Of a stretch of DNA of 64,000 nucleotides, positions 6,364 to 59,314 are shown in pieces; the first letter of the stretch is position 1, and each line of letters starts with the position of its first letter. The translations under genes were made by a program, and so were the position numbers. The notes beneath the pieces were generated by a model, which was not told where the DNA came from, searched no databases, and saw only the letters and a list, made by a program, of their open reading frames with translations. The DNA is from Theionarchaea archaeon. Lineage in GTDB: Archaea > Methanobacteriota_B > Thermococci > Methanofastidiosales > SZ-28-30. Location: NCBI GenBank assembly GCA_018992685.1, contig JACVGT010000018.1, forward strand, positions 256,001 to 320,000, written 5' to 3'.

Positions 6364-7538
6364 TGACAATAAGGAAAATAAAAGAAGGCATATACTGGGC
6401 TGGGTCCCTGGATTGGGATCGCAGGCTTTTCGATGAATTGATCCCTCTTCCGGATGGTACTACCTACAATTCGTATATTGTAGAAGGTGAGAAGACTGCG
6501 CTCATTGATACTGTCGATCCAACCAAAGGGCAAGAGCTGGTGGACAACCTCACTGCATGGGGAGGTTCCATCGATTTCGTTGTGGCAAACCATGCAGAAC
6601 AGGACCATTCAGGGTCTATACCAAGAGTACTGACGCTTTTCCCCCACGCCAAGGTAGTAACGAATTCCAAGTGCAAGAACATGCTCATGGATCTGTTGTT
6701 AATCCCTGAGGAAAAATTCTTGACAGTCAATGATGGTGAGACGCTCTCTCTGGGGAACAGGACGCTGCAGTTCTTTATGACTCCCTGGGTCCACTGGCCA
6801 GAAACGATGGTCACTTACCTGAAGGAGGAAAGAATCTTATTCAGTTGTGATTTCCTTGGCTCCCACCTGGCAGCCAGCCACCTATTCGCTCGAGACAAGG
6901 AAAAGGTGTTTGAATCTGCCAAGAGGTACTATGCTGAGATCATGATGCCCTTCAGAACCAGCATTAGAAGTCACCTGGAGAAACTTGATGCTCTCACAGT
7001 TAATATTGTTGCGCCCAGCCACGGTCCTCTGCATGATGAACCGCACTTCATCCTGGACTGCTACAGGGAATGGGTTTCCGACACGGTGAAGAACGAAGTT
7101 GTCCTCCCTTTTGTGTCCATGCATCAGAGCACCCGGGCCATGGTGGACTATTTAGTTGACGCACTCATTGATCGAAACATCACCGTTAAACCTTTCAATC
7201 TGATCCAAACAGACATCGGAGAGCTGGCCAAGGCGCTGGTCGATGCCGCCACCCTGGTGATCGCATGCCCAACAGTCCTTGCAGGACCTCACCCTGCAGC
7301 TGTGTATGCTGCATACCTGGCCGGCGCGCTCCGGCCCAAGACCAGGATCGTAGGTATTATTGGATCCTATGGGTGGGGAGGAAAGTCAGTGGAAACCCTC
7401 AGCCAACTGATTCAGAATCTCACAGTTGAAGTCCTCGATCCTGTGCTGATAAAGGGCTATCCTGAGCAGGAGGACTTCAGATTGCTGGAAAATCTGGCAG
7501 ACGAAATCCTTAAAAAGCACAAAGCACTAAATATATGA
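6363..7538 (+). CDS. fprA: Flavodiiron protein (FprA family)
   Basis: GTTYNSY, NHAEQDHSG, VHWPETM, FSCDFLGSH, PSHG, plus flavodoxin domain with GSYGWGG. Confidence 0.93.
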   Translation: MTIRKIKEGIYWAGSLDWDRRLFDELIPLPDGTTYNSYIVEGEKTALIDTVDPTKGQELVDNLTAWGGSIDFVVANHAEQDHSGSIPRVLTLFPHAKVVTNSKCKNMLMDLLLIPEEKFLTVNDGETLSLGNRTLQFFMTPWVHWPETMVTYLKEERILFSCDFLGSHLAASHLFARDKEKVFESAKRYYAEIMMPFRTSIRSHLEKLDALTVNIVAPSHGPLHDEPHFILDCYREWVSDTVKNEVVLPFVSMHQSTRAMVDYLVDALIDRNITVKPFNLIQTDIGELAKALVDAATLVIACPTVLAGPHPAAVYAAYLAGALRPKTRIVGIIGSYGWGGKSVETLSQLIQNLTVEVLDPVLIKGYPEQEDFRLLENLADEILKKHKALNI

Positions 7539-8286: not shown

Positions 8287-8808
8287 ATGATAGGAAAAGC
8301 GGTAGAGAAGGCCCTTAACACTCAGTTAAATGCTGAGTTGTATTCTTCGTACCTGTATCTGTCCATGTCATCCTGGTTCAGTTTTCAGAACCTAGATGGA
8401 TTCGCCAATTGGATGCGGGTGCAGGCACAGGAGGAGTTAGTTCACGCCATGAAATTCTATGACTACCTCATTCAAAGGAATGGACGAGTGCTCCTCCTTG
8501 CTGTGGATGCCCCGCCTACGGAGTGGGACTCCCCTGACGCAGTATTTGAACACACATATCAGCATGAGCAGAAGGTCACTGGACTGATCAACGAATTGGT
8601 TGACCTGTCCATTTCAGAAAAAGACCACGCCACCCACATGGTTCTCCAGTGGTTTGTGGATGAACAGGTAGAGGAAGAATCATCAGCAGCTGAAATCCTA
8701 GGAAAAATCAGGATGCTGAAAGAAAGTAAGAGCGGGATATATATTTTGGACAGAGAACTCAATCAGAGGGTATTCACACCTCCTCCTGCCCAGCAACCTG
8801 TGGAGTAG
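8287..8808 (+). CDS. Non-heme ferritin
   Basis: [38 protein letters not shown]. Confidence 0.95.
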
Positions 8809-8828
8809 CACCATTGAGAGGTGTGCAA

Positions 8829-9320
8829 ATGGACCTGAGTAAGTACAGCCTGAAGGACTTGCTGCTTGCTGCACTGAAAAGCGAGGTTGAAAGCAGGACT
8901 GTGTATGAAACACTCGCTCACAGAGTGAAGAACGCATTTCTCAAAGATCGTCTCGTATTCCTGGCCAGTGAAGAAAAGAAGCATGGGACTTTTATTGAAG
9001 GAGTGTACAAGAAGATGTTCCCGCAAGATACCCTCGCTCTACCTGACGAGACTCCCGTCCCATTGCCTCTGGTAAGGATTCCCACGGAAGACATCCCCCT
9101 AAGTGTGGTCTTTGAGCAAGCCATGGAAGCAGAAAAAGCCTCCAGTCAGTTCTATCAAGGGCTAGTACATCAATTCCAGGACATCAGGATGCAGAAGACG
9201 TTGGATGCTTTTGGGGCCATGGAAATGGATCATTACAGAATTCTTGAAGCTGAACTCAAGACAGTGAAGCGGTTTGAAACCTTCGACTCAGAGTGGCCCA
9301 TGATGAACGTAGGGCCATAG
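8829..9320 (+). CDS. Rubrerythrin-like/ferritin-like diiron protein
   Basis: ALKSEVE...LASEEKKH...AMEAEKAS..FY...EMDHY (paired ExxH motifs). Confidence 0.85.
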   Translation: MDLSKYSLKDLLLAALKSEVESRTVYETLAHRVKNAFLKDRLVFLASEEKKHGTFIEGVYKKMFPQDTLALPDETPVPLPLVRIPTEDIPLSVVFEQAMEAEKASSQFYQGLVHQFQDIRMQKTLDAFGAMEMDHYRILEAELKTVKRFETFDSEWPMMNVGP

Positions 9321-9384
9321 ATTCAAAGGAACAAGACAGGTGCAGGTCACCTACCTGATGGAATTTCCAAAAAGATGTGATATC

Positions 9385-9957
9385 ATGAATGTGAAAGGGA
9401 CTCAAACGGAAAAGAATGTGCTTATCGCCTTCGCTGGCGAATCTCAAGCACGCAATCGCTACACCTTCTTTGCCTCTCAGGCAAAGAAAGAAGGATATGA
9501 ACAGATCAATAACATTTTTCTGGAGACTGCAGATAACGAGAAAGAGCATGCAAAAAGGCTGTTCAAGTTCTTGGAAGGCGGAGAGGTGGAAATTAGTGCC
9601 TCATATCCGGCCGGAATTATTGGCAGCACCAAGGAGAACTTGAAAGCAGCAGCAGAGGGAGAGCATCACGAATACACCACCATGTACCCTCAGTTCGCTG
9701 ATATTGCCCAGAAAGAGGGGTTTCCAGAGATTGCCAATGCCATGAAATCCATAGCAGTGGCAGAAAAACAGCACGAAAAACGATATCTCGCTCTGCTTGA
9801 GAACCTGGAGAAAGGGCGGACATTCAAGAGAGGAGAGCCTGTGAAGTGGAGATGTGGGAATTGTGGATACATCCATGAAGGAACAGAGCCTCCTGAACAA
9901 TGCCCTGCCTGTGAACACAGTAAGGCATATTTTGAACTGCTTGCCGAAAATTGGTGA
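9385..9957 (+). CDS. rbr: Rubrerythrin
   Basis: AFAGESQARNRY, ENEKEH-like NEKEHAK, GEHHEYTTMYP, C-terminal WRCGNCGY...CPAC. Confidence 0.96.
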   Translation: MNVKGTQTEKNVLIAFAGESQARNRYTFFASQAKKEGYEQINNIFLETADNEKEHAKRLFKFLEGGEVEISASYPAGIIGSTKENLKAAAEGEHHEYTTMYPQFADIAQKEGFPEIANAMKSIAVAEKQHEKRYLALLENLEKGRTFKRGEPVKWRCGNCGYIHEGTEPPEQCPACEHSKAYFELLAENW

Positions 9958-9958
9958 A

Positions 9959-9984
9959 TTTTTCTTTTTTTTCTTTCTTTCTTC
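9959..9984 (+). terminator. T-rich archaeal terminator of the oxidative-stress operon
   Basis: TTTTTCTTTTTTTTCTTTCTTTCTT immediately after the rbr stop. Confidence 0.6.
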
Positions 9985-10101
9985 ACGAATCTCCCACTAA
10001 CTGATAAATATATTCTGGAGTATTGAGACAAATAGGCGGAATGTGTTACCAACAATTGGGTAGATTGGCAACTTTTTTATAGGGCTTCTTGAAAGGGTAA
10101 T

Positions 10102-10965
10102 ATGCACCTTCGAGATTGGTATGACCTGACCAGACTGGATCATGGAATTCTGTGGGGGGCTGCTGTGGTGGTGGGAGAAATTCTGGCATACAGAGGGTTC
10201 CCGCCTCTGCAATACATCATTCTTGGATTTTTCGCTCCACTTCTTGTGGAAATCGGTGTGTTCTCTTTGAATGATTACATGGATAGAGAAAGTGATATTC
10301 TAAATAATCGGGTCGATCGGCCTCTTGTTCGTGGCGCAATCCCCCGGCAGTACCCACTATATATCGCAGTGGTGATGCTGCCTGGAGCAGTAATTCTGGG
10401 ATTCGTTTCCAGTCTCGCAATTCCTTTTGTTCTGGTGATCTTGTTTTCAGCACTAGGTGTTCTTTACAATGTAAAATTGAAAGGAGTACCTTGCGTCAAG
10501 AACTGTATCATGGGTGTGTGCATAGCAGCACCCCTGCTGGGAGGAAACCTGATCGTAGAGGATGAGATTCTTCCCGTGGTTGCCCTCTTTGCTACTGCAG
10601 CCTTCTTATTGGGAACTGGAAGAGAAATACTGAAGGACATGATGGACACTGCAGGAGACCAGGCTACAGGGTGTAAGACGCTCCCCCTGATGGTCGGTTC
10701 GAAAAACTCAGCCAGAATCGTCTTCTCGCTCTTCCTGGTGTCATGCATTATAATCCTGGTTCCATATGCTTATCCTCTTGACAGTCTCTATTTCCATGAC
10801 ACCGTGTACCTGATTTCTGCCTGCGCAACGTGTGGGCTCACGATCTATTGTGCACGATCTATTATGAAGGACTGGTCCAGATCCAGTGTAGCCATATTGA
10901 GAAAAAGGACATTTCACATCCTTGAACTGGGTGTTCTTACCTTCCTGGTGGGAGTGCTCTTCTGA
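10102..10965 (+). CDS. UbiA-family prenyltransferase, probable digeranylgeranylglyceryl phosphate synthase
   Basis: NDYMDRESDILNNRVDRPL and GREILKDMMDTAGD..G..TLP motifs; multi-TM. Confidence 0.85.
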   Translation: MHLRDWYDLTRLDHGILWGAAVVVGEILAYRGFPPLQYIILGFFAPLLVEIGVFSLNDYMDRESDILNNRVDRPLVRGAIPRQYPLYIAVVMLPGAVILGFVSSLAIPFVLVILFSALGVLYNVKLKGVPCVKNCIMGVCIAAPLLGGNLIVEDEILPVVALFATAAFLLGTGREILKDMMDTAGDQATGCKTLPLMVGSKNSARIVFSLFLVSCIIILVPYAYPLDSLYFHDTVYLISACATCGLTIYCARSIMKDWSRSSVAILRKRTFHILELGVLTFLVGVLF

Positions 10966-10967
10966 GA

Positions 10968-11846
10968 TCACTCATTTCTGATTCGTTTTAATTTGGTGAT
11001 CATTACCACCCCGATCAAGGAGATACAGGACAGCATGATAAAGTACACATAATATCGAGACAGCGGAGGCTGGACAGAAGCTGCATTGACGTGGACCTTT
11101 CTTACCTCAAAAGCAGAATAATCGGGCTTGATGACTTCAATCGGCTTCTCCTTCTCTTCAATGAGAATTCTCACCAGAAATGTTTTTTCATATTCTCTCC
11201 CGAACCGATCTTCGTACGTTATCCTGACAGACCCTGTGTATTCTCCCGGATCTCCGTACACCAGGATTTCCTTGGATCCCCTGGTGAGCAGGTAGCCTAT
11301 ATAACTCTCATATTGCAGCTTGAGATCAGACATGATTTCAAACTGAAAATCAATGGCAACCTCATCAGAGTTCTTGAATCCAATAGTCGTTCTGTTGTCC
11401 ACAACAACCAGGGTGCCAGATTCCAAACTGATGGATGGTTCTCCATTCTTGATTCTGATATTGTAACTCTTCTTGTCCTCAAGCGTCTGACATACCCCGC
11501 CCTGACACGTCTTCGAGGTCACCAGACACGTGTACGATATGGTAACTGGGTATTCCCCATCTTCAAGGGACCTGCAATGGAATGTAAAACTCACAGTCTG
11601 CGAACCATAGGGAATGCTCTCAATCCGTGCCTTTTTGCTGTAGAACATGAGGTCAGTGCTGCTGACGCGTACTTCAATTCCTTCCACCATCTGTCCTGAG
11701 TTGTTGGTAAAGGTCACATTCATTGTTCCCTTGTCCTGCGATTCATACACTGCCTTGTCTGTCGCTACCTTGAGTGTAAGAATGTCTTCTGCCAGCACTG
11801 GTCCGAGAGATCCTAGAATCAGGATCACCAGAAGGAACCACCTCAT
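10968..11846 (-). CDS. Secreted, C-terminally anchored Ig/CARDB-like (COG1361-type) surface protein
   Basis: Signal peptide MRWFLLVILILGSLGPVLA, beta-rich body, ITYEDRFG, C-terminal TM plus basic tail. Confidence 0.6.
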   Translation of the reverse strand: MRWFLLVILILGSLGPVLAEDILTLKVATDKAVYESQDKGTMNVTFTNNSGQMVEGIEVRVSSTDLMFYSKKARIESIPYGSQTVSFTFHCRSLEDGEYPVTISYTCLVTSKTCQGGVCQTLEDKKSYNIRIKNGEPSISLESGTLVVVDNRTTIGFKNSDEVAIDFQFEIMSDLKLQYESYIGYLLTRGSKEILVYGDPGEYTGSVRITYEDRFGREYEKTFLVRILIEEKEKPIEVIKPDYSAFEVRKVHVNAASVQPPLSRYYVYFIMLSCISLIGVVMITKLKRIRNE

Positions 11847-50779: not shown

Positions 50780-51556
50780 CTACAGTTCTTTCTGCTGACA
50801 GCATTCAACAAGTGTTTCAGCTGCCTGCATAGGATTGTCTGTCCTGAATTCTGACGAAAAGAGTCGGAACAAAAGCTGTACATACCTTTCCATTTCTGTG
50901 AGTTGCTCTTGCTCAGATATATCCTGATTGAGCTGAGGGATCTGAAAATCTGTCTTTAAAGAATGGGAGACAATCCAGGAGGCTGCAACAAAAATGAAGG
51001 CGTGCTGGATGAGGAACCTGCTCTGGGAAGACAGTCTCTGTATGGTGAAAACGATGCTTAGATATCGCCATATGGATTGAGGATTGTCACTCTCCGTGGT
51101 GCGGTGCAGTATTTCATGGGTGAGGAGTTCCAGCACCTTCTGATCAGATTGGTGCCCAAGTGGAATGCTGAGTGGAGTGCTTCTGGGCCATGGACGAAAG
51201 AAGGACATCACAGGAAACACGTCCAGAATCCCATCATAGAAGATCCACAACTCTTCCATCAAGGAAATGATTCTCTTCTGGTTGGAATCCCACACTCGTT
51301 CAAGGTGTTGTTTGAATTCACGCAACTCTTCACTGAAGGCAGGCCACTCTGCAGAAAAAGAGTCCCGAAAAGAGGTTACTTCCCGTCGGATGGGAAGGGA
51401 AATGCTGGAGAGCACAGCATCCAGGGATGTGCTGGAGACGAAAAGGCTTTCTACCTCTCTTGACCACAGATGGGATTTCTCTGATGAGAGCTGGTTTCTG
51501 GCATATCCCAGAAAATTGAGTGGTTCTGATACGTGAAAGATCAGTCGTAGTGTCAT
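50780..51556 (-). CDS. HExxH-motif protein, putative metallopeptidase of the RiPP cluster
   Basis: ELLTHEILHR; co-oriented directly downstream of the methyltransferase; start placed at MTLRLIF. Confidence 0.55.
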   Translation of the reverse strand: MTLRLIFHVSEPLNFLGYARNQLSSEKSHLWSREVESLFVSSTSLDAVLSSISLPIRREVTSFRDSFSAEWPAFSEELREFKQHLERVWDSNQKRIISLMEELWIFYDGILDVFPVMSFFRPWPRSTPLSIPLGHQSDQKVLELLTHEILHRTTESDNPQSIWRYLSIVFTIQRLSSQSRFLIQHAFIFVAASWIVSHSLKTDFQIPQLNQDISEQEQLTEMERYVQLLFRLFSSEFRTDNPMQAAETLVECCQQKEL

Positions 51557-51611
51557 GGTATCATCACATTGGAGGTACGAACTGAACCCTCGTCTTTGTT
51601 GTTGGGCCAGT

Positions 51612-52406
51612 CTATCGTTTTCGAGCAATGGCCTGTAGATGGTTTCCAACTGGACCGAACCCTTCTTCATTCAGGGTGATCTCGTAGGTCAGGATCTTTC
51701 TCCTGAATTCTGCATCGGTTTCAAGTCTCTCTCCCAAGTCTTCAAAATACGCTGCCCCGAGCGTGAGAAACACAGGTTTTCCCACCACTTTTACGAGATC
51801 CGCACCTGCTCTGTCAAATTCCTCCTTGAAAACTCGTGGAGTAAAGGTATACGTGCGCGTACCCCTCTTATCCACTGCAACTCCTTTGTCCAGAATGGTT
51901 TCTCCTTCACCAAAGCCATGGAGAACAGATTGTCTCATGAAAAACATATATCTATTGTCTACCCCAATTTCAATGTAGGAACCGGGCCTGGCCACTCTCA
52001 CCAGCTCTTTTATTGCCTGGAAGTGATTTTCTGCACAGTAGGAGACAGGGTCACCCTCTGACAACACGAAGTCAAAGTGGTCTGAAGGGAAGTCCAGAGC
52101 CGTGATGTCCCCTTCTGTTACAAAGATGCGGTCAGTCAGTCCTTCCTTCTCGATTTTTTCAGAGGCTTCTGAAAGCATTTCCGGAGAAACGTCCACCAGG
52201 TACACAGTATATCCTTCCCTGGCAAGCTGTATACTCCATTTGCCCGTTCCTCCTCCTGCATCAAGAATAACACCCTGTTCGGGAAGATAGTCCGTGATGT
52301 ACTTCCAGGTAAGGGCATCATAGATCCCCCAGGATCCTCCAGAAAACATCTTGTCATATGACTCGGCCAGTCGACTGTAGGTTTCTCTTGCATTCTCTCC
52401 TTTCAT
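51612..52406 (-). CDS. Class I SAM-dependent methyltransferase (RiPP cluster)
   Basis: ILDAGGGTG, VDVSPEML, FDFV, ELVRVARPG; starts 4 nt after the PqqD stop. Confidence 0.9.
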   Translation of the reverse strand: MKGENARETYSRLAESYDKMFSGGSWGIYDALTWKYITDYLPEQGVILDAGGGTGKWSIQLAREGYTVYLVDVSPEMLSEASEKIEKEGLTDRIFVTEGDITALDFPSDHFDFVLSEGDPVSYCAENHFQAIKELVRVARPGSYIEIGVDNRYMFFMRQSVLHGFGEGETILDKGVAVDKRGTRTYTFTPRVFKEEFDRAGADLVKVVGKPVFLTLGAAYFEDLGERLETDAEFRRKILTYEITLNEEGFGPVGNHLQAIARKR

Positions 52407-52410
52407 GCCA

Positions 52411-52665
52411 TCACTCCAAGAGCTTTAACTCCCTGAATCTGGACAACGTTTTCTCGACGTCCTCCTCCACAGTACTTCTGTCACTCTCCTCATCTGTGAG
52501 CATGTCCAGAAGGTCTCCTTCTGTCATCCCTTGCTGACAGGCTTCCATGATGGCAAGAGCTGTCTCATTAAATCTGTAGATTTTACCTGTTCCCATGTGA
52601 ATGATGTATGTCTCATCAGGTTCCTGCCTGATCAACACCTGGGAACTAACCTTGGGCAGACTCAT
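52411..52665 (-). CDS. PqqD family / RiPP recognition element (RRE)
   Basis: G.IYRFNETA..I...C..G.T...L...L.......EEDV...L..F.ELKLL is the typical PqqD pattern; overlaps the rSAM stop. Confidence 0.88.
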   Translation of the reverse strand: MSLPKVSSQVLIRQEPDETYIIHMGTGKIYRFNETALAIMEACQQGMTEGDLLDMLTDEESDRSTVEEDVEKTLSRFRELKLLE

Positions 52666-53956
52666 GGGCATTCCTCCTTTCATACATATACTCTAAATAG
52701 GGCGTCACAAGTTGCTTTATGTCAATACATGCCGGAGTAGAGAGATCCTCATTGACCAGCAGTGATTGATATCCGCAACCGCCTCCGCAGACCAGTGCCA
52801 GTTCACATTCCCTGCAGGTATCCATAGAGAAGATTGTCCTGTCTCTCCATTTCTGCATGTTCCCATTGAATGACAATTCCGGCGTATACACTCCAATACG
52901 ATGTTCTTTCCAGCCCAGCATGGCTCGACAGGGGTACACATCTCCAAACGGGTCGAATACGTACCGGTTGGTTACTGCAGCGCAATTCCAGAAGGATGGC
53001 CAAAACCGGGGGCGCTCAGTGTACAGAGACGCCAGTTTCACATAAGGTGACGCCTCGAAAAACTGGAGGTCTTCCTGCAGTGCCACATCCAAGACCTGCC
53101 TGTAAATCGAAAACAGCTTCTCAGAATTCTCAATATCCGGAATCTGATCACACAAGTGGATCATGGCAAAGTGGACGGTGGGGTCATCAATCCACCCCCT
53201 CTCTCTGTAAAAGAGGGCAAGCTCGTGTATCTGTGATAGAACCTCTGGATCGCTGTTGGTTCGAAGTAGTAATGTGATCCCCATATCCCTGGCTTTCTCT
53301 ATGTTCCTGACAATAATGTCGAAAGTCCCCTTTCCACTTCTTGAAATGCGTCGCCCATCATGAACAGATCGAGGGCCATCCAGCGTGATCTGAACAAATT
53401 CTATGTTCAATGACGAAATCTCGGGGAGAAAAGAATGTAACTCCACACCATTGGTGAAAAGTGTGAACTTATACCCCAGATCATCCCCTTTGCGTAATAT
53501 GTATTTTACAATATCAGCATTCTTCATCATCAGGGGCTCTCCCCCTGTCAGGGTCAGAGGTTTCTCCCGTGAACATTGTGCATTCAGCTCTTCCATGGCG
53601 GTAAATGCCTTGTCCACTGTGGATTCATCTATCACCGTGTTCATCATCTGAGGGCTCTTTACCCATACTTCATAGCAGTAGGGGCACCGTAGATTACAGT
53701 CATATGTTACCGCAATCGTGCTGTCTGCACACAGGGCTGTCTTCTTCATCAAGAAACTGCAAAAAGCCTGGGCTTTCTCTGCCTCCTCTTCCGGACGTAA
53801 ATTCGTAAAAAAGGGTTTCAACTCCTCAGTGACTGTACCTTCAAGTAATTGTTCTCCAGTTTTCTTATCCACAAAAAAGACTGCACCTGACAATCCATTG
53901 AGCAGTACGTACTTGTCCTTCACTGCAAATACCATGGTATACTGGCTCTTTCTGAT
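52646..53956 (-). CDS. Radical SAM/SPASM peptide maturase (start possibly ATC at 53956; first ATG at 53935)
   Basis: CNLRCPYC, TGGEP, QITLDG...HD.RR; SPASM C..(x)..DPFGDVYPC...CRECELALVCGGGC...C; N-terminal RKSQY...Y.L.N.LSG. Confidence 0.92.
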   Translation of the reverse strand: MRKSQYTMVFAVKDKYVLLNGLSGAVFFVDKKTGEQLLEGTVTEELKPFFTNLRPEEEAEKAQAFCSFLMKKTALCADSTIAVTYDCNLRCPYCYEVWVKSPQMMNTVIDESTVDKAFTAMEELNAQCSREKPLTLTGGEPLMMKNADIVKYILRKGDDLGYKFTLFTNGVELHSFLPEISSLNIEFVQITLDGPRSVHDGRRISRSGKGTFDIIVRNIEKARDMGITLLLRTNSDPEVLSQIHELALFYRERGWIDDPTVHFAMIHLCDQIPDIENSEKLFSIYRQVLDVALQEDLQFFEASPYVKLASLYTERPRFWPSFWNCAAVTNRYVFDPFGDVYPCRAMLGWKEHRIGVYTPELSFNGNMQKWRDRTIFSMDTCRECELALVCGGGCGYQSLLVNEDLSTPACIDIKQLVTPYLEYMYERRNAHESAQG

Positions 53957-54153
53957 GGACTCACCTCCTTTCTGTTCTGGCAGCCCGTCTTAAAAAGGTT
54001 TTCTCAATCCCTCAATTCCTGTCGCGTCCTCCATGACTGCGACTGCCACAGAGACTGCTTCCACCACGAGTCCACGTTTAATAGTCCAAAAATCTCTTCA
54101 AAAAAAGTAAAAAGAATAGGAAATGTTTGCGCCTTTGTAGTGCTGTATCACGC

Positions 54154-54231
54154 CTAATCTGCGATGAAAGCGCAGCACATGCACTGGTCGATCTCTACAG
54201 AAATCTCTTCAATCTTAGCGTTCGTGTACAT
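54154..54231 (-). CDS. Putative RiPP precursor peptide A (25 aa)
   Basis: Not in track. MYTNAKIEEISVEIDQCMCCAFIAD; SD AGGTGA; BRE/TATA at 54264-54278; T-rich tract downstream. Confidence 0.85.
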   Translation of the reverse strand: MYTNAKIEEISVEIDQCMCCAFIAD

Positions 54232-54263
54232 GGATATCACCTGCTCTCCCTATTTTTTCTTTT

Positions 54264-54278
54264 CTTATAAACTTTTCG
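54264..54278 (-). promoter_or_regulatory. BRE/TATA promoter of precursor A
   Basis: CGAAAAGTTTATAAG; the TATA ends 33 nt before the ATG. Confidence 0.7.
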
Positions 54279-54475
54279 GATAAGAATAGATAGGCTAAAG
54301 GACGCATAAGACACTTTGAATTTTCCAAGAGATATATAATCCAGGCCCAGAATAGCCTAAAAGGCAGTACAATATCCTGATAGCGTAACTGTCTGGCTTT
54401 GCCCCACTTGAACATCACGTCCGTTGACTTTCATCAGCTTGCCCTGACAGTACCGATCATTGAACTTGGAACCAC

Positions 54476-54518
54476 AAAAAAGAAAGAAGGAAAGAGAAAG
54501 AAAGAGAAAGAAAAAAAG
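54476..54518 (-). terminator. Pyrimidine/T-rich terminator of precursor B
   Basis: About 40 nt of T/C on the minus strand right after the stop. Confidence 0.6.
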
Positions 54519-54537
54519 TGAAGAAAATCGGAAAAGC

Positions 54538-54636
54538 TTATGCAACGACTCCGATGTTGTCTATGGGGGCAGCAGCGCAGCACATGCACTGGTCGATCTC
54601 CATAGAAATCTCTTTGATTTCAGCTTTTGTGTACAT
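54538..54636 (-). CDS. Putative RiPP precursor peptide B (32 aa)
   Basis: Not in track. MYTKAEIKEISMEIDQCMCCAAAPIDNIGVVA; same SD/start context AGGTGATATCCATGTACAC as peptide A. Confidence 0.85.
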   Translation of the reverse strand: MYTKAEIKEISMEIDQCMCCAAAPIDNIGVVA

Positions 54637-54668
54637 GGATATCACCTACTCCCTTTTCCCCCTTGAGA

Positions 54669-54683
54669 CTTATAAATCTTTCG
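54669..54683 (-). promoter_or_regulatory. BRE/TATA promoter of precursor B
   Basis: CGAAAGATTTATAAG; same 33-nt spacing to the ATG as in precursor A. Confidence 0.7.
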
Positions 54684-54843
54684 CTTAAGTTTAACGAAGG
54701 CGAGTGGTGTAGCAGTAGATGGTAATATGAATACGGATATTTCATTTGAGGTTATACCACGCTGATTCCCAGACACATTCTCCTTTTCAATCTGGACAAG
54801 GCTTCTAGTGGCGTAAAAACTCTTGAAAGGGTTGCCAGAAAAG

Positions 54844-56085
54844 TTATTCTCCGATCTTCATGCCCTCTTTTATCAAGAGCATGGCTGCCAATACTGCTGC
54901 AACAAGGCACACTGACGTGATCTGGAAAGTCATCCTTATGTTGAATAACTCTGCAGCATACCCATAAATCAAAGGAGCCACGATGCTGGCCACCCCTCGC
55001 ACTGATCCCAGTGTCCCGAAATATGTGCCGCGCAGTTCTGCTGGAACGATATCCACAATCAAAGCGCTCATGACCGGGCGAAACATCCCATCACCAACTC
55101 CAATCAAGGCCCACAGGACTATCATCCAAATCAGTGTGGGAGAATACGCCATGGCCGTGTTGAAGACAATGATGAGCGTCAATCCTAGACCGATGAAAGC
55201 TTTTCTTTTCCCCAGCTTGTCTGAAATCCATCCTCCAAAAGGCTGGACGACGGCAAAGGTAATCCAGGAAACGGCAACGATGGGCCCCAGCAGTTCATTT
55301 CCCGCCCCAAACACCTGGGTCGCAAACAGGGGAACATACACAGGGTAGACACGCAGGGCAAACGTAAAGAAGAATGAGTAAACCATCAATCCTAGGGTGC
55401 TTTTCTGTAATGCCATGGTACGGGCGCTCTTTATGAATCTTTGAAATCTGGTTGCAGATGAGGCAGGCAGTGGTTTTTCCTCTTTTCGTTCAACAGTTTC
55501 CTTGAGGAAGAATGCAAGCACCAAAGAGGAGACAAAGAAGCACGCAGATGTAATGTAGAACAGCTCTCTGAACCCAAATCCCCACGATATGATCGCGCCT
55601 CCTCCAAAGAGAGCTGCAGAATACACAATGCTCTCTACTGAGGAATAGAACCCAAACAGGGTTGCTCGCCCCTTTTCAGGAGCAACATCTCCCAGCATAG
55701 CACTGAGAACAGGCTGAGAGCTTTCAGAAACAACCGTACGAGCAGAATGAATGACTGCCAGTCCCAGAGCATTACGAATGGCAAGATAAAACGGGGTCAG
55801 AAAACTCACCAGGAAAGACAGGCCTACAATGAGCTTTTTCCTTCCATATCGGTCTGACGTATGTCCCATGAAGGGGCGCAATACCAGCGAACCCAGGCTG
55901 GCCAGCGAGAAAATGATTCCCAAGTTTCGGAAGCTGATACCTTGCTCCACAAAATAGACTGCGAATATTGGATTCAAGAACCCTGCGCCAACCATGGAAA
56001 CTCCGCCCGCCAGGAGAAGGGCCGGGATATTCGTTGATTGGGAGAGCAATTTCCAGACTTTCTTGATTTCCAGGAATGCTGACAT
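54844..56085 (-). CDS. MFS transporter (possible peptide exporter)
   Basis: 12 TM; GHTSDRYGRK and GWISDKLGKRK loop motifs. Confidence 0.92.
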   Translation of the reverse strand: MSAFLEIKKVWKLLSQSTNIPALLLAGGVSMVGAGFLNPIFAVYFVEQGISFRNLGIIFSLASLGSLVLRPFMGHTSDRYGRKKLIVGLSFLVSFLTPFYLAIRNALGLAVIHSARTVVSESSQPVLSAMLGDVAPEKGRATLFGFYSSVESIVYSAALFGGGAIISWGFGFRELFYITSACFFVSSLVLAFFLKETVERKEEKPLPASSATRFQRFIKSARTMALQKSTLGLMVYSFFFTFALRVYPVYVPLFATQVFGAGNELLGPIVAVSWITFAVVQPFGGWISDKLGKRKAFIGLGLTLIIVFNTAMAYSPTLIWMIVLWALIGVGDGMFRPVMSALIVDIVPAELRGTYFGTLGSVRGVASIVAPLIYGYAAELFNIRMTFQITSVCLVAAVLAAMLLIKEGMKIGE

Positions 56086-56374: not shown

Positions 56375-57412
56375 TTACCATGATGAAAGAGGATCCGGGT
56401 CACCAGTTCTGCCTGATGCTGCATATGCATCTGCTCTGCATCCTCCGGTGCACAGTGAAAGATAGCCACAGTCACAGCATTGCTGGGGGACATGTGAGAA
56501 TGTCCTGCATTTCCAGATGAAATCTGATGTGCTCCAAATGGTTCTCAGTGACACTTTTTTTAGGTCACCTTCTTCTTTGCCCATGGCCCCACATGTACGC
56601 ACCGTTCCCTGGGGGGAGACTGCACACCATGTTATCCCTCCCTGGCAGCCTACTACATCAAATTTCTGGTAGATTTCGAGCATGGAAGGAATCCCCTCAT
56701 CTCCAAGACAACACAGGGGGAAAGGAGACTGTATGGACGCTCTTTTCACATCGCAGTGAAGGAGGAAGTCCATCAACTCAGAAATATTCTGGCTGTTAAA
56801 CTGCAGTGTTCGGTCAGCACATCTGCCCGTGAGAACCAGGCGAGTCATGCTGAGACTTGCTTTCAGTGATTGTGCGACTTCATCAACATGAGACAACTCC
56901 TTGAAATTCAGGCGGGTTAGTGCCAGGTTAATATTGGTGGGAACTCTGTGCTCTGCCAGCTCCTGGAGTCCCTTCACAGCTTTCCGGTAGGCTCCTGGAA
57001 CACCTGCGAGAACATCATGTGTTTTCTCAGTCCCGTGGAGCGAAACCTGCACTGAGGTATTCAGATGATGCAGCATCTGTGCTTTCTCTTCGGTCAGAAG
57101 GGTCCCATTGGTGACTACACACGTCTTCATCTTGCAGGTTCGTGCATATTCTATGAGCTCGAATATATCTTTCCGCAACAGGGGCTCTCCCCCGGTGAAA
57201 AAAAGCATCTTGACATCAGCTTCTCTCAGGCGGTCCAGAATTACCGTCATGTTAGTATCATGGTGGCTCTTGTGGTTCTTATCCCACACATTATAGCAGA
57301 ACTGACACAAATTATTGCATCGGGACGTCACTTCCAGTTCCACCGTTATGGGGGAGGAAAGAGCCCTACCCAGCTCATGAGACCCCTTTCTGAACTCATC
57401 GGGAGACTTCAT
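56375..57412 (-). CDS. Radical SAM/SPASM protein
   Basis: Start MKSPDEF after SD GGAGG; CNNLCQFC, TGGEPLLR; SPASM CQGG...G.VRTC...CCDCGYLSLCTGGCRA. Confidence 0.9.
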   Translation of the reverse strand: MKSPDEFRKGSHELGRALSSPITVELEVTSRCNNLCQFCYNVWDKNHKSHHDTNMTVILDRLREADVKMLFFTGGEPLLRKDIFELIEYARTCKMKTCVVTNGTLLTEEKAQMLHHLNTSVQVSLHGTEKTHDVLAGVPGAYRKAVKGLQELAEHRVPTNINLALTRLNFKELSHVDEVAQSLKASLSMTRLVLTGRCADRTLQFNSQNISELMDFLLHCDVKRASIQSPFPLCCLGDEGIPSMLEIYQKFDVVGCQGGITWCAVSPQGTVRTCGAMGKEEGDLKKVSLRTIWSTSDFIWKCRTFSHVPQQCCDCGYLSLCTGGCRADAYAASGRTGDPDPLSSW

Positions 57413-58250
57413 GCAGAACCTCCTGATACTGTGATGCGTCAGCACGTGCTCTGTCAGCATTTGTATACCGATGCTTGAACAGTACGCGGTTGTTTCGAAT
57501 GAAATATAAGGACATGTAACCAGAGAGGGGCTGCTCTTTGATACATGGCGTGCCGCCGATTTCTGAGATATCCGGGGAGGTTTTTTGAGATTTCGAGGAT
57601 TCGTGTTCATCAGTGGGCACCAGGACAAATACGTCACCTGCATCAGGAATGTAATCAAGAAGATGACACAGATCACGTTGTGCCCGCACGTGGGTGAGAT
57701 TTTCAATCTGAGAGCTGTGGCTTTCAAATGTGTGAGGAAGTGTTGTCTTCAAAGCAGAAAACATACTTGTGACGTAATGCAGATGGACTGCTTCGGTCCT
57801 GTACTTGTGCAGGCTGAAAGGAATCAAGAACGTCGGTACCTGGATGGAATTCTCTTGAGAAAAGACTTCGAGGGCATGTATCTTGGCTTGCACAGCCTCA
57901 ACCCTCCCATGGGAAATCCACCCGTCAGGAGAAAACATGCACCCTGTAGAGAATACGTTCTTGGGCAGCTCTTCCCCCGTTACTGCACTGGATAGGAGTA
58001 AGAATAGAGGGACTGAGGTACTCCATCCATCTACAGCGTCGCTATCCACTGAGACCAAGAAATCGTAATCATTACAGTCAAAAACCTTCCCAATCAATTG
58101 AGAAACTGCGCGCAGTTGGAATTGCCATTCCGGATAGAAAATGGTGGACGCATCCAGGAAGATCTTCCCATCACCTGTCATTCTCTGCACAGAGAGAGTC
58201 CGAGGAATTCCTCTATTCTCAGCTAGTACAAAAATGACTGTAGAGGTCAT
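57396..58250 (-). CDS. Stand-alone Lon-type (S16) Ser-Lys protease-like domain protein
   Basis: VDGWSTS (cf. DGPSAG), TG..SPDG.I..., QAKI; no AAA+ module; ATGA-coupled between two rSAM genes. Confidence 0.65.
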   Translation of the reverse strand: MTSTVIFVLAENRGIPRTLSVQRMTGDGKIFLDASTIFYPEWQFQLRAVSQLIGKVFDCNDYDFLVSVDSDAVDGWSTSVPLFLLLSSAVTGEELPKNVFSTGCMFSPDGWISHGRVEAVQAKIHALEVFSQENSIQVPTFLIPFSLHKYRTEAVHLHYVTSMFSALKTTLPHTFESHSSQIENLTHVRAQRDLCHLLDYIPDAGDVFVLVPTDEHESSKSQKTSPDISEIGGTPCIKEQPLSGYMSLYFIRNNRVLFKHRYTNADRARADASQYQEVLHEVSR

Positions 58251-59314
58251 CCAAGTTCCCCCGGATTGTACCAGCACTGAGGATCAGGCTGATTGTAGTC
58301 TTCAAAGTAGCCGTAAGCAATGCATGCTGCACCCCCGTTACAGAGCCCTTGATGCTGCATGAATTTACAGGACTGACATTTTCCCTTCAAGAGTGATCGA
58401 CGTCTTCTGAAATCCCACAGGACATCATGCTTAAACCATATATCCAGAAAGGACTGCTCAAGAAGAGAACCGAGTGCGATGGGTAATCTCCTGCAGGGAA
58501 CAGCAGTTCCATCTGCCAGAACGGTAAAAGTAGATGATGCTACAGCACACGCATTTCCCAGCCGCTCTTCTCTACCGTTGTAGCGTCTCACAGCTTCTTC
58601 CGGATCAGTCAAATGAAAGAGACACCTGTTCTCCGCAATGTGAGGAGTTCCTTTCCGGGACAATTCCTGGTTCTTCTGATGGAGATACATGAGAATGTCT
58701 CTGGTTTCTTCAGGTGTCAGGACAGCATCCAGCATCTTTCCTCTCCCGATGGGAACTAGTCGGGTTAAGTACAGCGTATCCACACCCAGTTTTTTTCCCA
58801 GAGCAATAAGAGATGGAATATCCTCCTTGTTGTGAGCATGAAAGGTGTAGCTTATCGTGGTCTTGAGAGATGTACTGGCTATGATGGAGGTCAGTCCAGA
58901 TACAGCCTTTCTGAATGCTCCTTCTCCTCGTATAGAATCATTCACTGAAGGCACACTCCCGTCAAGACTCACCTGAATGGTGGTTATAGGAGGGTGAAGC
59001 TCATTCAGGTTCTCAATAATCTGCGGGGTGATGAGAGTCCCATTTGTCTCAAGAAGAACCTGGGTAACGCCTTTTGAATACAAATAGCGTACAAGTCGAA
59101 AGAGATCCTGGCGGAGAAACGGTTCTCCTCCGCTTAAGGCAAAACAGGGTGTTACTTCAAGAACTTTTAACCCTTCTATGAGCGTATCAGCAATCGTCGT
59201 GAGCTTCTCAAAGGGAAGATCCTGCATCTTTTCGTCCCTGTAACAATGCGTGCAGTGCAGGTTGCAGCGATCAGTGATGTGCCACTGCAACGTAAATCCT
59301 CGGGTTGTCTGCAT
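58247..59314 (-). CDS. Radical SAM/SPASM protein
   Basis: QWHITDRCNLHCTHCY, SGGEPF, QVSLDG; SPASM CAVA...DG...PCRRL...KCQSC...C.GG..C.A......PDPQC. Confidence 0.92.
   Translation of the reverse strand: MQTTRGFTLQWHITDRCNLHCTHCYRDEKMQDLPFEKLTTIADTLIEGLKVLEVTPCFALSGGEPFLRQDLFRLVRYLYSKGVTQVLLETNGTLITPQIIENLNELHPPITTIQVSLDGSVPSVNDSIRGEGAFRKAVSGLTSIIASTSLKTTISYTFHAHNKEDIPSLIALGKKLGVDTLYLTRLVPIGRGKMLDAVLTPEETRDILMYLHQKNQELSRKGTPHIAENRCLFHLTDPEEAVRRYNGREERLGNACAVASSTFTVLADGTAVPCRRLPIALGSLLEQSFLDIWFKHDVLWDFRRRRSLLKGKCQSCKFMQHQGLCNGGAACIAYGYFEDYNQPDPQCWYNPGELG

Follow-up and report, generated by a model that had tools for sequence, protein, structure and literature searches.

Short CMCC peptides encoded beside a radical SAM/SPASM enzyme as probable precursors of a new archaeal RiPP family

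Two small genes in the window, by which we mean the whole stretch of 64,000 nucleotides analyzed here (positions 256,001 to 320,000 of contig JACVGT010000018.1 of a Theionarchaea archaeon), are best explained as precursors of a new archaeal RiPP family that is probably cross-linked by thioethers, and on the sequence comparisons given below we consider this reading reasonably likely. The peptides are very likely precursors since they always lie beside one dedicated radical SAM (rSAM) enzyme, and it is from family resemblance alone that we infer the thioether chemistry. The original prediction had placed two short ORFs containing EIDQCMCCA next to genes for an rSAM/SPASM protein, a PqqD protein, and a methyltransferase, with an HExxH protein on one side and an MFS transporter on the other, and this neighborhood is as it claimed (Table 1). 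Both ORFs are likewise present on the minus strand, and pairwise comparison of the two loci shows them to be alignable from the ribosome-binding site (RBS) to CMCCA, downstream of which the sequences part ways into differing tails. The ORF listing also gives GTG-started forms, 54154..54240 for gene A and 54538..54645 for gene B. The core and tail of gene B recur identically at locus L101 of the sister genome. Across the 3.03 Mb of the assembly, EIDQC, DQCMCC, and CMCCA are confined to genes A and B, save for one CMCCA. This single occurrence, at C7:38058, is unrelated.

Table 1. Features of the locus, in positions of the window
Feature	Coordinates	Strand	Description	Basis
HExxH protein (membership doubtful)	50780..51556	minus	258 aa, zincin-like predicted fold	start taken from conserved Met39
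Class I SAM-dependent methyltransferase (accessory)	51612..52406	minus	264 aa	same 4 loci as PqqD
Stand-alone PqqD/RRE protein (accessory)	52411..52683	minus	likely start 52665, 84 aa	PF05402
Radical SAM/SPASM peptide maturase	52646..53935	minus	429 aa	sole enzyme always accompanying the peptides
Oligo-T tract, gene A	54100..54118	minus	likely terminator (inferred function)	3′ of gene
Precursor gene A	54154..54231 (stop codon included)	minus	25 aa, MYTNAKIEEISVEIDQCMCCAFIAD	ORF listing and homologue alignment
RBS, gene A	54232..54241	minus	GGTGATATCC	immediately 5′ of ATG
BRE/TATA-like promoter element, gene A	54264..54278	minus	CGAAAAGTTTATAAG	pattern matches in window
Pyrimidine/oligo-T tract, gene B	54476..54530	minus	likely archaeal terminator (inferred function)	3′ of gene
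Precursor gene B	54538..54636 (stop codon included)	minus	32 aa, MYTKAEIKEISMEIDQCMCCAAAPIDNIGVVA	ORF listing and homologue alignment
RBS, gene B	54637..54646	minus	GGTGATATCC	immediately 5′ of ATG
BRE/TATA-like promoter element, gene B	54669..54683	minus	CGAAAGATTTATAAG	pattern matches in window
MFS transporter (membership doubtful)	54844..56085	minus	413 aa	adjacency

Fourteen homologous ORFs of 24–35 aa were gathered from seven loci or contigs, and in their alignment M1, Y2, E9, C17, M18, C19, and C20 are invariant throughout. Each peptide begins with an acidic, conserved N-terminal part of 16 residues (M1, Y2, I/V7, E9, E/D13, D/E15), continues with CMCC at residues 17–20, and ends in a hydrophobic, freely variable tail of 4–15 residues, with no conserved acceptor residue common to the tails of the 14 aligned peptides. 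Within the first 20 codons, 11, 7, and 17 of 20 sites are variable at codon positions 1, 2, and 3, respectively, and synonymous codons alternate at E9 (GAG/GAA, 7/7), C19 (TGC/TGT, 11/3), and C20 (10/4). From ATG-TAY onward, all 14 copies have an open sense frame, and two often-open antisense frames meet stops within the conserved block in 1/14 and 3/14 copies; because the antisense frame with coinciding wobble positions has nearly the same synonymous share (347/898) as the sense frame (371/949), the strand was assigned from starts, stops, and signals and not from substitution ratios. Four family members had no match to any family, curated precursor models included, in Pfam and NCBIfam at E-values up to 10, in keeping with the earlier remark that the motif was not recognized from any described class. 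Two of eight queried peptides were found in a collection of 15 billion proteins, and CMCC precursors are thus largely invisible to standard annotation.

Every precursor gene is, as its predicted promoter, RBS, and T-tract indicate, a separate small transcription unit. The promoter pattern CGAAANNTTTAWAAG has two matches in the 64-kb window, each about 32 nt 5′ of a precursor ATG, where 100 shuffles lead one to expect none. The signals were surveyed in 12 of the 14 copies (the two L110 copies were left out), and all 12 possess a CGAAA-TTTA(A/T)A element about 30–47 nt upstream, a GGTGA-type RBS, and T-runs 3′ of the stop codon; from established knowledge of archaeal promoters, we take the CGAAA/TTTA element to be BRE/TATA. 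These observations bear on whether the small ORFs could instead be regulatory upstream peptides, sensing Cys, Met, or SAM, or non-functional conserved DNA, which we hold to be scarcely probable. The ORFs contain many Cys and Met codons and lie 5′ of the rSAM gene on the same strand in five of the six assessable loci, as a regulatory role would have it, but each copy has a promoter-like element, RBS, and T-tract to itself, loci differ in copy number (1 to 5), and in locus L022 all five copies are downstream of the rSAM gene, up to 3.7 kb away. Conservation at the protein level, variation at third positions, and tails of free length moreover fit a product and not an attenuator, and leader-peptide attenuation is, to our knowledge, not an established mechanism in archaea.

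Judged from the comparison of loci, the conserved unit is the peptide or peptides together with the rSAM. Orthologues of the enzyme (≥53% identity to that of the window) occur at eight loci, two of which begin within the rSAM gene and were left out of the peptide count. All six loci with usable flank (the window, L101, L102, L021, L022, and L034) have between one and five genes for CMCC peptides, on the same strand as the rSAM gene, in a narrow sample drawn from three genomes of a single genus and from contigs mostly of one metagenome assembly, whose loci are not independent of each other; the proposed tie between the small ORFs and the rSAM/SPASM gene was favored by this comparison. Ninety-two loci with more distant rSAM paralogues (≤38% identity) yielded no CMCC peptide. 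Among 185,579 species genomes, a 60-nt degenerate peptide pattern met three stretches only, all from two Theionarchaea/Thermococci-labelled assemblies, and the distribution of the system is patchy, comprising one genus and some metagenome contigs.

By its domains and Cys motifs, the window enzyme is a radical SAM/SPASM peptide maturase. It scores 57.9 bits against PF04055 (cut-off 29.5) and 52.9 bits against the SPASM model TIGR04085 (cut-off 27, residues 318–400), with no match to PF13186 of Pfam, and the CxxxCxxC motif (C80, C84, C87) is invariant in 19 orthologues, as are the seven SPASM cysteines (C318, C336, C374, C377, C383, C387, and C403) that two auxiliary clusters would call for, and also G331. 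All 19 match the CefB, PapB, geopeptide, TIGR04463, and Clo7bot models at E ≤1e-20, and the E-values of the named maturase families against all or most of the orthologues are typical of a superfamily relation. The window enzyme stays below every named-family cut-off, namely those of CefB (NF038107, 145.6 bits against 600), TIGR04463 (CrpC, 124.4 against 525), PapB (NF047865, 105.7 against 340), SCIFF (TIGR03974, 94.3 against 425), and geopeptide (TIGR04280, 118.7 against 400). SPASM enzymes also catalyze C-C and C-O links, epimerization, and oxidation, and the peptides might be genuine rSAM substrates for a C-C or C-O cross-link, an epimerization, an anSME-like Cys oxidation, or a Met18-centered reaction; we regard such chemistry as unlikely. 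Its case is made by the scores below all family cut-offs, by matches to models other than those for thioethers (DynA 97.3 bits, YhhB cyclophane 78.8, anaerobic sulfatase maturase 66.5), by the anaerobic sulfatase maturase structures among the PDB matches, and by Met18, as invariant as the three cysteines, which a pure thioether model leaves unexplained. The strongest model and structure matches, however, are maturases named for Cys-rich peptides (CefB, TIGR04463/CrpC, PapB, and SCIFF/CteB), three invariant cysteines within four residues suggest Cys as the reactive group, and the other Cys-rich short ORFs that adjoin paralogous maturases, putative precursors themselves, also point to Cys. Paralogous maturases number 14 in this genome, which also has 20 matches to the PqqD domain (16 above the cut-off).

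Among known systems, the closest solved relative is 5wgg/5why (E 1.1e-20, profile 70–400 to chain 97–429), given in a recent study as CteB, the thioether maturase of SCIFF (thermocellin) (PMC13692751). An rSAM core with a full SPASM domain and a short Cys-containing peptide substrate are found in both, whereas the window enzyme is far below the SCIFF cut-off given above, is about 27 residues shorter ahead of the rSAM core, and has a separate PqqD in its cassette. Its precursors, of 24–35 aa with one CMCC box, also differ from the six-Cys SCIFF peptide. The archaeal counterpart is CrpC of Methanococcus voltae, a SPASM rSAM of the TIGR04463 family with a predicted RRE, which according to the same study installs ranthionine links in CrpA, a large, Cys-rich protein with a conserved N-terminal “leader-like” part, a 17-residue motif occurring 10 times, and C-X-X-Q/D motifs (PMC13692751). 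Among NCBIfam models, TIGR04463 ranks second for the window enzyme, which its score nevertheless places outside that family. The study left out proteins <100 aa, so that CMCC-type peptides lay beyond its scope (PMC13692751). A donor-acceptor pattern like that of CrpA is not evident C-terminal to the cysteines, because the tails have no conserved acceptor. CefB (“Cys-every-fifth”) is the best and the PapB ranthipeptide maturase a consistent NCBIfam match in 19/19 orthologues, and both families, to go by the model names, presumably modify Cys-rich short peptides; the scores are far under their cut-offs, and the window precursors have no periodic Cys repeat. In sactipeptides the Cys sulfur is joined to an alpha carbon and in ranthipeptides to a beta or gamma carbon, and the gene layout of these pathways is found here, with a Cys-containing short precursor beside rSAM/SPASM in 6/6 loci and PqqD in 4/8.

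The PqqD protein and the methyltransferase are, from their occurrence across loci, accessory to the peptide and rSAM unit. PqqD scores 43.7 bits against PF05402 (cut-off 23.4) and 20.6 against the equivalog TIGR03859 (cut-off 46), its ORF begins before the rSAM gene has ended, and the methyltransferase starts 4 nt past the PqqD stop. The two adjoin four of the eight orthologous rSAMs, the other four loci being rSAM-only, and their presence does not track the rSAM tree; their predicted place in the pathway has the support of this conservation with the rSAM at four loci but is not universal. A leader-RRE complex had also been suggested, and prediction with PqqD and the peptide gave 0.43 over 0.00 for the best of three controls, albeit in the range (≤0.60) of weak support, where a passing score misleads more often than not unless the pairing is likely beforehand: the pass mark was met by 58/80 solved complexes and 2/110 mismatched pairs, and at ≤0.60 by 7/80 solved complexes and both mismatches. 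These runs, on custom alignments, had contact agreement of at least 84% and partner pLDDT of at least 53.

The PQQ and mycofactocin pathways (PqqA/D/E, MftA/B/C) likewise combine a short peptide with a chaperone of the PqqD type and an rSAM/SPASM enzyme, and by the same logic the invariant part could give rise to a small cofactor or chaperone with a redox or metal-binding role, the tail being discarded. We think this quite improbable. The gene logic matches (25–35 aa peptide, PqqD, rSAM/SPASM), the N-terminal block and CMCC are invariant next to a freely variable tail, three thiols and a Met thioether within four residues may form a soft-metal ligand set, and the source runs are labelled sediment metagenomes; yet several divergent precursor copies per genome (two in the window, five in L022, and at least three in the sister genome) are typical of diversifying RiPPs and not of a single cofactor, and the system is patchy, not being found in 37 other searched genomes of the same order and class. 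The peptides match no PqqA or MftA model, PqqE and MftC are not among the 25 best rSAM matches listed, and PqqD is under the TIGR03859 cut-off. Conservation falls on Cys and Met here, whereas the key residues of the PQQ and mycofactocin precursors are Glu/Tyr and Val-Tyr, respectively.

Whether the MFS and HExxH genes on either side belong to the system is doubtful. The HExxH ORF is open to 51670 (span 50780–51670), and its conserved start is Met39 (~51556), as in homologues, which leaves about 55 nt between the methyltransferase stop and this gene and no overlap. HE[IVL]LH is kept in 6/6 covering sequences and 7/7 share a His further downstream, and zincin peptidases fill almost all of the top 50 VIA-align rows for the AF2 model (pLDDT 86.5), led by 9daz_C (Z 8.5, rmsd 3.9, 165 aligned), where Z 7–8 is typical of models without a clear match. 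The protein has no Pfam family match, and Foldseek with the model gave none at E ≤0.001. In the sister genome, whose cassette lies elsewhere, the MFS gene overlaps the HExxH gene and no cassette separates the two, and neither gene was found near other cassettes; HExxH-mediated leader removal and MFS export, both proposed from adjacency alone, are hence unsupported.

In the thioether-forming pathway that we favor, the maturase would use its own N-terminal domain, which has three strands and helices in the predicted model at pLDDT of only 51–74, to recognize the conserved start of the peptide, and in a cassette of the window type the stand-alone PqqD/RRE would assist in this recognition. By 5′-deoxyadenosyl radical chemistry, the maturase would link the CMCC cysteines to carbons of other residues in sactionine- or ranthionine-type thioethers, the acceptors being either tail residues or the conserved acidic trio that precedes CMCC, and the co-transcribed class I methyltransferase may add a methyl group to a leftover thiol, a carboxylate, or a tail Asp. 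The product may serve in antagonism, signalling, or metal binding. On a reading that we hold to be unlikely, the N-terminal block could itself be retained in the product, with the CMCC cysteines linked back to E9, E/D13, and D/E15 or kept as a thiol/thioether metal site. If so, a very small scaffold, knotted or metal-chelating, would carry a free tail of variable sequence; the family would be a RiPP class of new structure restricted to sediment archaea of the Theionarchaea type, and its rSAM would do without a separate RRE in half the cassettes.

Few archaeal radical SAM-dependent RiPPs have been studied so far, and the only archaeal case we found in print, CrpC (2026), acts on a large protein (PMC13692751). 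The system described here is compact, clearly delimited, and directly testable, consisting of a CMCC peptide of 24–35 residues and one dedicated enzyme, and it offers natural variants with and without the PqqD chaperone and the methyltransferase. It could therefore reveal the chemistry of an as yet uncharted branch of SPASM maturases, show whether a stand-alone RRE is dispensable, and show the use that is made of such peptides by uncultured archaea of anoxic sediments, which have 14–29 paralogous maturases per genome.

The two small ORFs that the original prediction had taken for precursor genes (genes A and B) are present on the minus strand and encode short putative precursors with a Cys-Met-Cys-Cys box, here called CMCC peptides; the neighbours that it had listed, namely a radical SAM/SPASM maturase (rSAM), a PqqD protein, a methyltransferase, an HExxH-motif protein, and an MFS transporter, are all as described.

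Coordinates of the CMCC peptide genes, the maturase, and neighbouring genes in the window
Feature	Coordinates	Strand	Remarks
HExxH-motif protein	50780-51670	-	ORF; homologues begin at Met39
Class I methyltransferase	51612-52406	-	Start 4 nt past PqqD stop
PqqD protein	52411-52683	-	PF05402, 43.7 bits (cut-off 23.4); overlaps end of rSAM gene
Radical SAM/SPASM protein (rSAM), 429 aa	52646-53935	-	PF04055, 57.9 bits (cut-off 29.5); TIGR04085, 52.9 (27)
CMCC peptide gene A	54154-54231	-	ORF, 25 aa
CMCC peptide gene B	54538-54636	-	ORF, 32 aa
MFS transporter	54844-56085	-	Upstream flank

Genes A and B can be aligned from the ribosome-binding site to the CMCCA codons and are divergent beyond, and within the 3.03-Mb assembly the peptide motif is confined to them. 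The exact pattern CGAAANNTTTAWAAG occurs twice in the window, only at these two genes, with 0 occurrences expected by chance. Fourteen homologous ORFs, taken from the window, from two sister genomes, and from metagenome contigs, all encode a Met-Tyr start and invariant E9, C17, M18, C19, and C20, with variation at position 7 (I/V), 13 (E/D), and 15 (D/E), followed beyond C20 by 4–15 freely variable residues. Of the first 20 codons, 11 vary among the 14 copies at position 1, 7 at position 2, and 17 at position 3, and invariant residues switch between synonymous codons (E9 GAG/GAA 7/7, C20 TGC/TGT 10/4). Since the antisense frame that shares the wobble position has a synonymous share similar to that of the sense frame, the strand of these genes cannot be read from substitution ratios alone. 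It is fixed by the sense frame being open in 14/14 copies, always from the same ATG, by stops that break two frequently open antisense frames inside the conserved block (in 1/14 and 3/14 copies), and by upstream and downstream signals: all 12 copies listed carry a CGAAA-TTTA(A/T)A element 30–47 nt upstream, a GGTGA-type Shine-Dalgarno sequence, and T runs after the stop. From general knowledge of archaeal promoters, we take the upstream element to be a BRE/TATA box. With this element, the Shine-Dalgarno sequence, and the T runs, each CMCC peptide gene seems to form a small transcription unit by itself. That the ORFs are open merely by chance was rejected on the strength of these signals, the residue conservation, the distribution of variation over codon positions, and the consistently open sense frame.

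Two antisense ORFs in the window, 54164-54283 (+) and 54518-54688 (+), mirror the conservation of the peptide genes and most likely arise only as a side effect of conservation on the sense strand, because stops break them in some homologous loci. CMCCA occurs a third time in the genome, at C7 about 38058 (+), in a different Cys-rich open frame that has no obvious Met start and is not near any listed rSAM or PqqD match; this occurrence is probably due to chance. A scan of the window for bacterial-type promoters and terminators was uninformative, the host being archaeal, and base composition gave no island signature.

The peptides are linked to one narrow branch of maturases. Paralogues of rSAM, often in tandem, number 14 in this genome (G000) and 29 in its sister genome G001 (matches at E ≤1e-20), and the orthologues form a sharply separate group, with 29 clusters at 53–84% identity in a set of 5.8 billion proteins and the next at ≤37%; where their source is named, these clusters come from Theionarchaea or a Candidatus Methanofastidiosia archaeon. 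Eight loci with an orthologue (at least 53% identical to rSAM) were compared, six of them with usable flanks; the contigs L026 and L103 start within the rSAM gene and were left out of the count of peptide presence. The original prediction had named homologous rSAM loci lacking similar peptides as evidence against itself, and the comparison speaks in its favour: CMCC peptide genes were found in 6/6 assessable loci, always on the rSAM strand. They lie upstream of rSAM in the window (two genes), L101 (two), L102, L021, and L034 (one each), and all five of those in L022 lie downstream, while L110, another contig of the genome of L103, ends with two, possibly three, further CMCC peptide genes. Around more distant rSAM relatives (≤38% identity), CMCC peptides are absent from all 92 loci, and a search of 185,579 species genomes with a degenerate 60-nt peptide pattern retrieved only three stretches, from two assemblies. 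In four DNA runs, short contigs cover only the leader- and CMCC-coding segments, about 54168-54247 and 54572-54646, with 3–20 letters different from the window, and then continue unlike it; these contigs, seen in DNA runs only, hint at further diverged copies in sediments. In L022 a peptide gene and a DUF362 gene each occur in two copies (7284-7514 and 8369-11000), flanking a DDE transposase gene, with one DUF362 copy a mere fragment, and their position on both sides of the transposase gene suggests amplification of precursor genes by a transposon.

PqqD and the methyltransferase are optional parts of the cassette. The order rSAM-PqqD-methyltransferase is found in four of the eight orthologous loci (window, L101, L102, and L026), and in the other four rSAM stands without either gene and is followed by unrelated ones. 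A tree of the eight rSAM orthologues does not split cassettes with PqqD and methyltransferase from those without, L026 grouping with L022, which has neither. The methyltransferase orthologues form a tight group (23 clusters at 54–87% identity, then ≤43%), and the closest solved relative is 2avn, an uncharacterised UbiE-like protein. One Asp is present in the tail of each of the five peptides from methyltransferase-linked cassettes and in none of the seven peptides of L021, L022, and L034, two of which have Glu; this correlation was rejected as evidence because it comprises two lineages only.

The roles that the original prediction had assigned to the flanking genes, leader removal by the HExxH protein and export by the MFS transporter, are not supported. 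The cassette lies between these two genes in the window and in L101, a close relative; however, at L106, a locus of a third genome of the genus, they overlap each other downstream of the neighbouring gene rSAM2 with no cassette between, and the cassettes of that genome sit elsewhere, beside a large ORF and beside a nucleotidyl transferase. The HExxH protein is tied to the CMCC peptides only by adjacency in two close relatives. An overlap of its ORF with the methyltransferase gene was rejected, since the homologues start at Met39, which leaves a gap of ~55 nt between the two genes. Its family is very small (five representatives at E ≤0.001 among 1.84 billion proteins), has no named counterpart in Atlas, and keeps the HExxH motif and a downstream His. 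The structural model (pLDDT 86.5) resembles zincin peptidase domains; a Foldseek search against the PDB returned nothing at E ≤0.001, and in a fold comparison, whose best match reached Z 8.5, zincins made up almost all of the 50 best rows. Given the kept residues and the zincin-like model, the protein is probably a metallohydrolase. A second copy of this rare protein (42% identity) is encoded in the sister genome at L107 (G002:C68), 1019-1819, beside a large ORF and away from any cassette. No export or protease gene consistently accompanies the cassettes among the loci compared; of those with rSAM only, L034 has a divergent MatE transporter gene adjoining the peptide gene, and L021 a subtilase gene 1.8 kb from the cassette. 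At 56375-59314 (-) the window holds an apparent second operon with overlapping reading frames, encoding two more rSAM/SPASM proteins, whose best NCBIfam matches are NirJ2/AhbD-like and all below cut-off, and between them a 293-aa protein that neither Pfam nor NCBIfam matches. Because this operon is directly followed in L106 by the MFS and HExxH genes, these two may be part of it and not of the CMCC cassette.

Hence the original reading of the locus as a RiPP cluster stands for the precursors and their link to rSAM, and not for the protease and exporter. We consider it likely that the CMCC peptides are RiPP substrates of rSAM, with probable thioether chemistry. The maturase would recognise the conserved N-terminal block of the peptide, PqqD may assist it, and the CMCC cysteines would be altered by radical chemistry. 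All cluster-binding Cys are invariant among the rSAM orthologues. The first 65 residues of rSAM are predicted as three strands and two helices, which tentatively, and at low confidence, resembles an RRE; the AF2 model of the protein is poor (pLDDT 64.1, below 50 in the SPASM part). Prediction of a PqqD-peptide complex scored 0.43 vs. 0.00 for the best control. In calibration, 58 of 80 solved complexes reached this mark, as did 2 of 110 mismatched pairs; at or below 0.60, only 7 of those 80 solved complexes and both mismatched pairs did so. The model weakly supports binding.

Thioether formation on the CMCC cysteines is our leading guess, by analogy with known maturases. All 19 rSAM orthologues match best the CefB, PapB, geopeptide, TIGR04463, and Clo7bot maturase models, named for Cys-rich peptides, and among solved structures the best relative is 5wgg/5why. 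This structure is identified as CteB in a study which also showed that CrpC, an archaeal TIGR04463 member, installs ranthionine links (PMC13692751). No acceptor residue is common to the tails of the 14 peptides. The block just upstream of the CMCC box keeps three acidic residues (E9, E/D13, and D/E15), and because their number equals that of the cysteines, the “leader” is possibly part of the product. Why Met18 is invariant is not explained by the thioether reading.

The maturase repertoire of G000 and G001 is unusually large, and in 37 genomes outside the genus (same family, order, and class) there are mostly no rSAM matches. PqqD-domain matches in G000 number 20, of which 16 exceed the Pfam cut-off, several beside rSAM paralogues. 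Further short Cys-rich ORFs lie beside tandem rSAM paralogues of G000, at C18:10930-11088(-), C10:13962-14156(+), and C2:35882-36109(-); one repeats the nonamer CALEVQPTF about six times and the other two end in dense Cys/Gly clusters. These ORFs appear to encode precursors of additional RiPP families of this organism.

The CMCC system would work like sactipeptide and ranthipeptide clusters and has a three-part logic in common with the PQQ and mycofactocin pathways. In line with the original prediction, which recognised the precursor motif from no described class, the CMCC peptides (four family members compared) match no Pfam or NCBIfam models at E up to 10; only two of eight CMCC peptides looked up are present, both nameless, in a collection of 15 billion proteins. 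Every NCBIfam maturase model lies far below its cut-off for rSAM, which belongs to none of these named families. The published literature (subscription journals being outside coverage) yielded nothing on CMCC-type peptides, this rSAM clade, or RiPPs of Theionarchaea, and the only archaeal study found left out proteins below 100 aa (PMC13692751). The DNA runs that hold the window stretch are labelled as marine, estuary, or other sediment metagenomes. In a comparative sample that is small and phylogenetically narrow, the system is so far restricted to Theionarchaea-like archaea, and what appears to be new here is a precursor family together with an unassigned enzyme branch, within the already known kind of rSAM/SPASM RiPP systems.
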